A stretch of 64,000 nt of DNA from Dictyostelium discoideum (lineage: Eukaryota): NCBI GenBank assembly GCA_000004695.1, contig CM000150.2:3648001-3712000 (forward strand), given 5' to 3'. Made by a program: the position numbers and the translations under genes. The notes beneath the pieces were generated by a model that searched no databases, had not been told where the DNA came from, and worked only from the letters and a program-made list of their open reading frames with translations. Below are positions 24,996 to 27,571 of the stretch, piece by piece. Each line of letters begins with the position of its first letter. Positions within the stretch are counted from its first letter, which is position 1.

Positions 24996-25859
24996 TAAAT
25001 TTAAAAAAATATAAAAATTATAAAAATAATAAAAATAAAAAAAAAAAGATAGAAATTTTTGAATAGAAAAAGTTTTTTTTTATGACTTTGATTTTGTTTT
25101 ATTTATTTTGTTTATTTATCTTTAGTTTTTTTTTTTTTTTTTTCATAAAAAATCCATTTTTTTATAAATTTTATTCTAGTTGTTTTTCAAAACAAAAAAA
25201 AAAAACAATTATAAAAAATGAATGGGAAATAAATTTTTTTTCTTTTTTATTTTGTTTAAAATTTGAATGTTTTTATTAATATTATTAAATCTAATAAGAT
25301 TTTAATTTTATTTAGAAATTTTTTTTTTTTTTTTATTTTCATATTAAAACTAAATAATTAAGTAAAACAAATTAATCTCCATTAGGAGTCTCGGTCATAA
25401 TGATAAGATTTTATATTTTTTTATTTTTAATTTTTTATTTTTATTTTTATTTTTTTTATTTTATAAAATTAACAAACACACAAAAATATGAAAAATAATA
25501 CAATAAAATAAAAACTAGGATAAAATATGATTATTATCATAATTTAAAATATAAAAATTAATAATCATTATGGATATTTTAATAAAAATTAATAATGTAA
25601 AAAAAAAAAAAAAAAAAAATTTAGTTTCAAATAAAAAAAAAAAAAAAAAAATGATTGTAAACAGAATAACATGACGATAATAATTATTTTCGTCCATAGA
25701 AATTCATTTTTGAAATTTTATTAAAAAATTTTTTTTTATTTTTTTTTTATTTTTTATTTTTTTTTTTTTTAAATTTCAATGAGAAAAATCTAATTTTTTT
25801 TTTTTTTCATTTTATTTTACTTACTCCAAAATCATATATATATATAATTAAAAAAAAAA

Positions 25860-26359
25860 ATGACAACCGTATGTAGTAATAATATAACCAACCTTTTTTT
25901 TTAAAAAATATTTAATTATTATTATTATTCAGAATATTATAAAAGAAATAAATGAAAAAATATTAATACTAGAAAATATTTTTTTTTTTTAAATTTATAT
26001 GATTAGTTTGAAGAAGCTGCTCAAAAAGTTAAAGAATTCACCAAGAAACCATCAAATGATGAATTATTAAGCCTTTATGGCTTATATAAGCAAGGAACCG
26101 ATGGTGACTGCAATATTAGCGAGCCATGGGCCGTACAAGTTGAGGCAAAGGCCAAGGCAAGTGTTTTTTTGATATAAATGGAGCAATTCTACTGCAAACT
26201 GAAAACAAGGATTTTCATACTAACTTTCCCTTTTTTTTTATTTTTTATTTTTATAAAATATAGTATAACGCTTGGAATGCTCTCAAAGGTACCTCAAAAG
26301 AAGATGCCAAAGCTAAATACGTTGCTCTCTATGAACAATTAGCCACCAAATACGCTTAA
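25860..26359 (+). CDS. acbA: Acyl-CoA-binding protein AcbA (precursor of the spore-differentiation peptide SDF-2); exons 25860..25868, 26007..26156, 26264..26359
   Basis: MTT | FEEAAQKVKEFTKKPSNDELLSLYGLYKQGTDGDCNISEPWAVQVEAKAK | YNAWNALKGTSKEDAKAKYVALYEQLATKYA* is a canonical ACBP fold and 84 aa as I recall for AcbA. Intron 1 has a GTATGT donor and a gattag acceptor. Intron 2 has AAG|GCAAGT (an apparent GC donor) and aaatatag|. Confidence 0.88.
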
Positions 26360-26540
26360 GTTATTCTAAATCTATTATAATAGTCTAATTGTTTTTACAA
26401 TTAAAATATAATAAAATAAAAGAATACTTTATTGTTTTTATAAATGTATTTAAAAAAAGACCATTCTATTTTTTTTTTTTTTTAATTATCCCTAAATATT
26501 TAAACAAGACTGGAAATACTGGTGGATATCATATCAATAT

Positions 26541-26750
26541 TAAGTGGCCTTTATGGCTTATATAAGCAAGGAACCGATGGTGACTGCAATATTTGTGAAC
26601 CTTTGGGCTGTATAAGTCGAGGCAAAGGCCAAGTGTTTTTTTGATATAAATAGAACAATTCTACTGCAAATAGGATTTCCAAAAATAACTTTACTTTTTT
26701 TATAAAATGGTATAAACCTTGGAATGTCTTCAAAGAATTAGCCACCAACC
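26541..26750 (+). pseudogene. Degraded partial duplicate of acbA (part of exon 2 + intron 2 + exon 3)
   Basis: About 210 nt collinear with acbA 26076..26359, including intron sequence (…gtgtttttttgatataaata…), with deletions and substitutions (LSGLYGLYKQGTDGDCNICEPLGC…). It has no start and no intact frame. Confidence 0.65.
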
Positions 26751-27571
26751 GCCATATTATTATTATTATTATTATTTTTTATTTATTTTTATTAGTTCAC
26801 AACAAATTGTTTTTATTTTTTTTTCATTTTTTTTAAAAACAATGGCATATGATTTTAAAGAATTTTTTTTTTTTTTTTTTTGAATAATTAATATCTAAAA
26901 AAAAAATAATAACAAATATTATCATATATCCTCTTAATTCTATTTCATTTTCGAAAATAGTCTGAAAAATAATAATAATAATAAATAAATTTTAAATCAT
27001 TTTGAAATTGGTCATTTTTTGATATATAAAAAAAAAAAAAAAAAAAAAAAAAATTAAAAATATTTTCCTTTTTTTATAACTCTATCAAAATAAATTTATA
27101 GTTTTAGCTCGCTCATATTCTATATAAAAATTAAAACATTTGGAATTATAAAAAAAAAAAGAATAACAAAAGAATTTCGCTTTTTTGTAATGTGGCAAAA
27201 AAGGTCGGAAATTTCTGCTTAAATAAAAAATATCTTCTCAACAATTAATGAAAAAAAAAAAAAATTAAACAACCAAAAAAATAAAATAAAAATTATAAAT
27301 ATATAATGAAAAAAATGATATATAGTTTAAAAAAGAACAATAAAATTTGCTTAATAATAGTTTTTGTAAATTTATATATTAAATCATTGTTTGAAAAAAA
27401 AATGAAAAAGAAATGATAAAAAAAAAAAAAAAAAAAAAAATGAAATTTGAAGGATGTTTTTAAAACTGGAAAAAAAAATAAACCAAGATTTAATATTTTC
27501 TAAACTAGTTTAAAAATTTTATTTACAAATATATAGTTAACAATATTGTTTATTTAGTAATGTGATAAAAG

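Follow-up and report, generated by a model that had tools for sequence, protein, structure and literature searches.

Spliceosomal introns that begin with GC and end with AG form a well-understood minor class. In animals and plants, an otherwise strong donor compensates for the weak base that these introns carry at position +2. Their general rarity, which the preliminary description of the DNA analysed here had pointed out, is borne out by a cDNA-based survey of 61 species, in which they make up 1.3% of 2.46 million introns (PMC3033335). The proportion is lower still in Dictyostelium discoideum, with 3 of 3309 introns (0.09%), and D. purpureum has 10 among 4522 (PMC3033335 Additional file 1). 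Dictyostelium has also been reported to lack the minor spliceosome and its snRNAs (PMC11347168). As to how introns arise in this organism, no source sequence was identified for 38 of the 40 putative gains proposed in D. discoideum (Ma et al., 2015, PMC4683709).

The gene acbA of D. discoideum encodes the precursor of the spore-signalling peptide SDF-2, a 34-aa product of the tryptic type that is released by cleavage after a conserved Lys, before Pro at one end and before Ala at the other; the literature on AcbA and SDF-2 uses the sequence XP_646321 (PMC2828923). Here, we compare the structure of this gene with the systems described above and with the ACBP genes of other Amoebozoa. The window that we analysed is a stretch of 64,000 nucleotides (assembly GCA_000004695.1, contig CM000150.2, positions 3,648,001 to 3,712,000 of the forward strand), and all positions without another label are counted from its first nucleotide. 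The features discussed are collected in Table 1.

Table 1. Features of the acbA locus in the window and intron positions in orthologous genes (a slash between bases or numbered residues marks an exon-intron boundary or the position of an intron; L numbers denote the other sequences compared)
Feature	Position or species	Strand	Details
Interval between conserved flanking genes, with acbA inverted inside it	25048..27516	.	blastn, tblastx
acbA exon 1	25860..25868	+	ATG ACA ACC = MTT; then donor ACC/GTATGT
acbA intron 1	25869..26006	+	GT-AG, 138 nt, 10.9% G+C, phase 0
acbA exon 2 (F4 to K53)	26007..26156	+	tblastn 100% identity, residues 4-53
Inferred SDF-2, codons P18-K51	26049..26150	+	coordinates inferred by counting
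GC 5' splice site AAG/GCAAGT	26154..26162	+	cleavage 26156/26157; C at 26158
acbA intron 2, GC-AG	26157..26263	+	107 nt, phase 0
Two unused GT dinucleotides	26161..26168	+	CAA/GTGTTT at 26161; AGT/GTTTTT at 26163
Candidate branch site TACTAAC	26218..26224	+	branch A 26223, 40 nt upstream of the terminal AG; role inferred from position and match to the U2 consensus
Pyrimidine tract	26225..26253	+	27 of 29 nt T or C
3' splice site AG (aaatatAG/TAT)	26262..26263	+	read in the sequence; spliced alignment
acbA exon 3 (Y54 to A84 and TAA stop)	26264..26359	+	tblastn 100% identity, residues 54-84
Decayed partial direct copy of acbA	26547..26750 (about)	+	blocks of 92% and 95% identity; alignment, tblastn
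Phase-0 intron following codon 3 or 4 (intron 1)	all seven species
Phase-1 intron directly upstream of (Q/K)PW	D. purpureum, P. violaceum, H. album, P. fungivorum		L007 3113-3211, L008 3213-3290, L009 3251-3347, L010 1665-1737
(Q/K)PW phase-1 intron, here 5 codons further upstream	T. lacteum		L001 3180-3256
(Q/K)PW phase-1 intron missing	D. firmibasis, D. discoideum		D. discoideum: window 26118, codon S41
Additional phase-0 intron, 6 codons downstream of K53/Y54	D. purpureum only		L007 3268-3353
Intron at K53/Y54	D. discoideum only, among seven

The acbA gene and its product

Positions 25860-26359 of the forward strand can be identified as acbA of D. discoideum AX4, on chromosome 1. Three short coding blocks lie here within very AT-rich DNA and, once joined, encode an 84-aa protein, the length given in the preliminary description. 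From end to end, this product shows 100% identity with EAL72679.1, XP_646321.1 and Swiss-Prot Q5FXM5. These accessions stand for one protein, 'acyl-CoA binding protein [Dictyostelium discoideum AX4]', and the database protein used in this comparison comes from the genome annotation and from Swiss-Prot. Exon 2 closes with GTT GAG GCA AAG GCC AAG and the reading frame ends with the TAA at 26357-26359. Translation confirms the exon ends that had been proposed, with ...VEAKAK up to 26156 and YNAWNAL from 26264, in phase 0 on both sides.

The 84-aa protein scores 103.5 bits against the Pfam ACBP profile (PF00887; cut-off 28.3) and covers profile positions 2-75 of 76. In an alignment of ACBPs, with residues numbered as in the native 84-aa form, Y27, Y30, K31, A56 and W57 occupy invariant columns and K53 a near-invariant one. 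The core of the protein, namely the YKQ motif, the AW pair and the Lys that precedes the [W/Y]xAW helix, is in register with ACBPs of solved structure: the human structures 2fj9 and 2cb8 align with AcbA without gaps over 81 residues, and the bovine structure 1aca matches across the same span. The gene in the window can also be tied to the locus DDB_G0270658, for which an intron loss at gene base 259 has been tabulated (PMC4683709 Table S1). This base corresponds to 121 coding nucleotides plus the 138 nt of intron 1, that is to position 26118, and coincides with the site of the missing ancestral intron described below.

Splice sites of intron 2

The bases that directly follow the end of exon 2 are GCAAGTGTTTTT, and the acceptor at 26263/26264 is the only one that gives back the ACBP frame. 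The donor AAG/GCAAGT and the acceptor aaatatag/TAT (26256-26263/26264) are both plainly present, as the preliminary description had stated. It had further held that GCAAGT is the only donor at this boundary, and an exhaustive spliced-alignment search bears this out. With GT, GC and AT all admitted as donors and intron lengths of 40-500 nt, every spliced alignment that yields the database protein uses the intron 26157-26263. Since this protein (XP_646321.1) can be obtained in no other way, the public gene model implies a GC-AG intron 2. The junction is in this sense already known, as it is built into the public acbA model. Without splicing, the frame would continue through AKAKASVFLI to a stop codon within the intron, and splicing is therefore required.

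The donor AAG/GCAAGU matches the consensus CAG/GUAAGU at 7 of 9 positions (-2, -1, +1 and +3 to +6); between -2 and +6, it departs from it only by the C at +2. If a canonical U1 5' end is assumed, the modelled U1 duplex has an energy of -7.8 kcal/mol, as compared with -3.5 kcal/mol for the GT donor of acbA intron 1. The motif AAGGCAAGT occurs once in the whole window, both strands included, where 0.2 occurrences would be expected by chance, and this sole AAGGCAAGT is located exactly at the nucleotide required for the intron 2 boundary. Within the intron, G+C content is 30% in the first 70 nt (26157-26226) and 11% in the last 37 nt. The former value is atypical for a Dictyostelium intron; intron 1 of acbA has about 11%.

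These features point to an ordinary intron of the major spliceosome (U2-type), belonging to the GC-AG subclass, a reading to which we assign a probability of about 0.9. Like other members of this subclass, intron 2 has GC at +1/+2, a terminal AG and a junction that restores the frame, and its donor is near-perfect elsewhere (AG/GCAAGT) and accompanied by a U2-type branch site and a pyrimidine tract. The differences are that in D. discoideum the subclass is rarer by a factor of about 14 and that the acbA example is apparently young in evolution; none of them is mechanistic. On this reading, U1 snRNA would pair with AAG/GCAAGU with the C at +2 as a single mismatch, for which the consensus bases listed above would compensate. 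U2 would pair with TACTAAC, 40 nt upstream of the AG, and the 3' end of the intron would be set by the 29-nt pyrimidine tract together with the AG. Splicing would then link K53 to Y54 and give the 84-aa acyl-CoA-binding protein. With U12-type introns, intron 2 shares only that it belongs to a class with rare terminal dinucleotides. A search of intron 2 for U12-type motifs gave neither a donor nor a branch motif: the donor is GCAAGTGT (GCAAGT) and not [A/G]TATCCTT, and the branch site is TACTAAC and not TCCTTAAC.

A single T-to-C difference would produce exactly the AAG/GCAAGT picture, and this genome has very few introns of the GC-AG type (0.09%). One could thus imagine that the C at 26158 is an error of the reference or a strain-specific variant, and that the true donor is GTAAGT. 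We consider this extremely improbable. A donor that is perfect except at +2 is the pattern of genuine GC-AG introns, cDNA-supported introns of this type are known in D. discoideum (PMC3033335), and the window gives no hint of low sequence quality at this position. The only other copy of the donor region is a pseudogene fragment in which a 5-bp deletion spans the equivalent of 26158, leaving the ancestral base at +2 ambiguous. When metagenome and metatranscriptome contigs were scanned, neither of the two spliced junctions, with a gap of 0-6 nt, was matched.

Alternative GT donors and the SDF-2 peptide

Weak GC donors of other organisms are often associated with the use of alternative 5' splice sites. 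The preliminary description had named GTTTTT as the nearest GT and had located it at 26161. The two residues that it would add, Ala and Ser, are confirmed; its position is 26163. The GT at 26161 (CAA/GTGTTT) is in phase 1 and can be rejected as a donor, since it leads to ...AKAI and a stop with the only usable acceptor. The modelled U1 duplexes, again with a canonical U1 5' end, reach -3.4 kcal/mol at 26161 and -1.8 kcal/mol at 26163.

Use of the GT at 26163 by the spliceosome, for the main product or for a minor isoform, would give an AcbA of 86 aa with Ala-Ser after K53. This donor is in phase 0 and has the canonical dinucleotide, and with 96.1 bits the longer protein remains above the Pfam ACBP threshold. 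Nevertheless, we regard such use as very improbable. The site AGT/GTTTTT, earlier described as a very poor donor, agrees with the consensus at only 3 of 9 positions and has the U1 duplex energy given above. The insertion lowers the Pfam score by 7.4 bits, from 103.5, and would fall right after the near-invariant Lys that opens the AK-[W/Y]-x-A-W helix. When the 84-aa form, the 86-aa alternative and 28 other ACBPs are aligned, none of these 28 has a residue between AK and the [WYF]xAW motif, and the Ala-Ser insertion stands alone. Moreover, none of about 15 billion protein sequences is exactly this 86-aa form. The reading of intron 2 as a GC-AG intron of the U2 type is thus the one retained here.

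The GC donor had been called notable because the gene encodes the SDF-2 precursor. The gene is indeed the same, but the link is only one of position. In AcbA, P18-K51 comprises exactly 34 residues and is bounded by Lys-Pro on one side and Lys-Ala on the other; its coding sequence lies entirely inside exon 2, stopping 6 nt short of the GC donor. SDF-2 would therefore be unaffected by the choice of donor, which would alter just the C-terminal helices 3 and 4 of the AcbA precursor.

Intron positions in amoebozoan ACBP genes

Orthologues from other dictyostelids were found by profile search, and the introns of their loci were mapped exactly, giving a comparison of seven species: D. discoideum, D. 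firmibasis, D. purpureum, P. violaceum, T. lacteum, H. album and the outgroup P. fungivorum (Table 1). All are single-domain proteins of 84-90 aa, the others being 56-63% identical to D. discoideum AcbA, which differs from them in being the most divergent of the seven. In columns where at least five of the other proteins agree, it carries 10 private substitutions, as compared with 2 for D. firmibasis.

The phase-1 intron just before (Q/K)PW is ancestral, being present in P. fungivorum, the outgroup, as well as in D. purpureum, P. violaceum and H. album. This small gene is unusually fluid in its intron positions, as indicated by T. lacteum, where the phase-1 intron sits 5 codons upstream. Only one of the 15 introns mapped starts with GC, the one at K53/Y54; all 14 introns of the other six species start with GT.

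Several other observations were made on these sequences. The ACBP of D. firmibasis has AK-W-Q-A-H (L006 3347-3358), with His at a position where 30 aligned ACBPs invariably have Trp. The D. purpureum model DICPUDRAFT_28922 is marked as partial, with 81 aa; its missing first exon can be recognized as ATG TCA CTC AAC (MSLN), followed by the donor GTAAGT (L007 2901-2912), so that a full model of 87 aa with three GT-AG introns can be built. An intronless ACBP of 91 aa (P0004) is encoded on metagenome contigs with tightly packed genes (L002 69-344, L003 70-345 and L004 448-723). It shares with D. discoideum the specific block GDCNISEPWAVQ(I/V)EAK.KYNAWN, which the other dictyostelids do not have.

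Inversion and partial duplication of the locus

The gene is flanked by genes for a CH-domain protein and a His-tRNA synthetase on one side and by a Gad2-like gene on the other. In the stretches that were sampled, these neighbours are shared: the first two recur in T. lacteum and P. violaceum, the Gad2-like gene in P. violaceum. Owing to this synteny of the flanking genes, the loci can be considered orthologous. In blastn comparisons with D. firmibasis (L006), the flanks align in reverse, L006 1-2470 with 29934-27517 and L006 3688-6442 with 25047-22245, whereas L006 2853-3353 aligns forward with 25701-26161, at 66% identity. The flanking genes themselves show 74-77% nucleotide identity with those of the window. 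With tblastx, the same pattern of reversed flanks and forward acbA was seen for D. purpureum (L007), P. violaceum (L008) and T. lacteum (L001). Relative to these four species, acbA is thus inverted in D. discoideum, by what looks like a local event specific to this species. A search for inverted repeats flanking acbA that might explain the inversion gave only uninformative matches between A/T homopolymers.

About 190 bp downstream of the acbA stop codon lies a decayed copy of part of the gene in direct orientation. Exon 2 is represented in it by its 3' half, intron 2 in shortened form and exon 3 by fragments only. The copy has lost 5 bp exactly at the donor (GGC-----CAAGTG), reads GG in place of the acceptor AG, and contains indels that break the frame; judged by its sequence, it is a pseudogene fragment. 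As intron 2 is included in the copy, the fragment must be younger than the intron.

Age and origin of intron 2

The K53/Y54 intron is absent in all six other species compared, whose orthology is supported by synteny and two of which are other group-4 genomes. Intron 2 is therefore most likely a gain of the D. discoideum lineage that followed the separation from D. firmibasis. In the D. discoideum lineage, we infer, the locus also lost the ancestral phase-1 intron and became inverted and partly duplicated. Intron 2 resembles the putative gains proposed by Ma et al. (PMC4683709) in being absent at the orthologous position in the sampled outgroups and in having no identifiable source. It differs from them in that Table S1 of that study lists only the intron loss for DDB_G0270658, and not intron 2, and in that acbA is also inverted and partly duplicated.

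Alternatively, intron 2 could be an older group-4 intron, homologous to intron 3 of D. purpureum, that was shifted by 18 nt and lost in D. firmibasis. The D. purpureum intron is also in phase 0 and lies just 6 codons downstream, and losses greatly outnumber gains in Dictyostelium (441 as compared with 40 putative gains; PMC4683709). However, a shift of 18 nt exceeds the intron sliding that is usually accepted, and this scenario costs both a shift and a loss, where the alternative costs one gain. The two introns also have nothing in common beyond the branch consensus. We therefore consider common descent of the two introns unlikely, and a gain in the D. discoideum lineage remains the preferred reading.

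It is tempting to suggest that intron 2 was born during the local rearrangement itself, that is during the inversion and the formation of the partial tandem pseudogene, with a GC donor recruited from old coding sequence. We propose this tentatively, at somewhat less than even odds. The BLAST alignment with D. firmibasis runs 5 nt into the intron (GCCAAG-GCAAG against GCC AAA TGG CAA G), and the donor may accordingly derive from old coding sequence, a post hoc observation on six bases.

Other origins were considered and rejected. Descent of the intron from old coding sequence downstream of the AK codons was addressed by aligning nucleotides 1-74 of intron 2 with exon 3 and with the 3' coding regions of four orthologues; these local alignments were no better than those of shuffled sequences (p = 0.3-0.9). 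For an origin by tandem duplication, the 5' end of the intron is unlike the start of exon 3, and its 3' end unlike the end of exon 2. For an origin from a transposon or repeat, the unique 73 nt of intron 2 match only themselves and the adjacent pseudogene copy, in the window and in the loci compared with it. Overall, neither a source sequence nor a signature of gain, such as a target-site or tandem duplication, was found for intron 2.

The start of intron 2 (26158-26165) and that of exon 3 (26267-26274) share an 8-bp complementarity, CAAGUGUU with AACGCUUG, which is present in both the minimum free energy and the centroid folds. This pairing is probably due to chance, since the region folds no better than shuffled sequences (z = +1.18). 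An RNA gene within intron 2, which the 30% G+C of its first 70 nt had brought to mind, can be dismissed in view of this fold value and because Rfam gave no match at E <= 1 between 25000 and 27600.

Significance

Three findings are new here: an intron position found in D. discoideum only among seven species, an inverted gene and a decayed copy 190 bp downstream. Intron, orientation and pseudogene fragment all seem to be peculiar to D. discoideum. In practice, gene finders limited to GT-AG introns would break or mis-extend acbA, and minigenes, knock-ins and tagged alleles of the gene should keep the GC donor together with its strong context. The gene for this signalling precursor combines a lineage-specific intron, the loss of an ancestral intron, an inversion and a partial duplicate with the most divergent protein of seven orthologues. 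With just 40 putative gains proposed genome-wide, acbA offers a compact case for the study of intron turnover in social amoebae. Should intron 2 have arisen in the rearrangement, as tentatively proposed above, it would be a rare dated case of an intron that carried a non-canonical donor from its birth, in an unusually fast-evolving gene.
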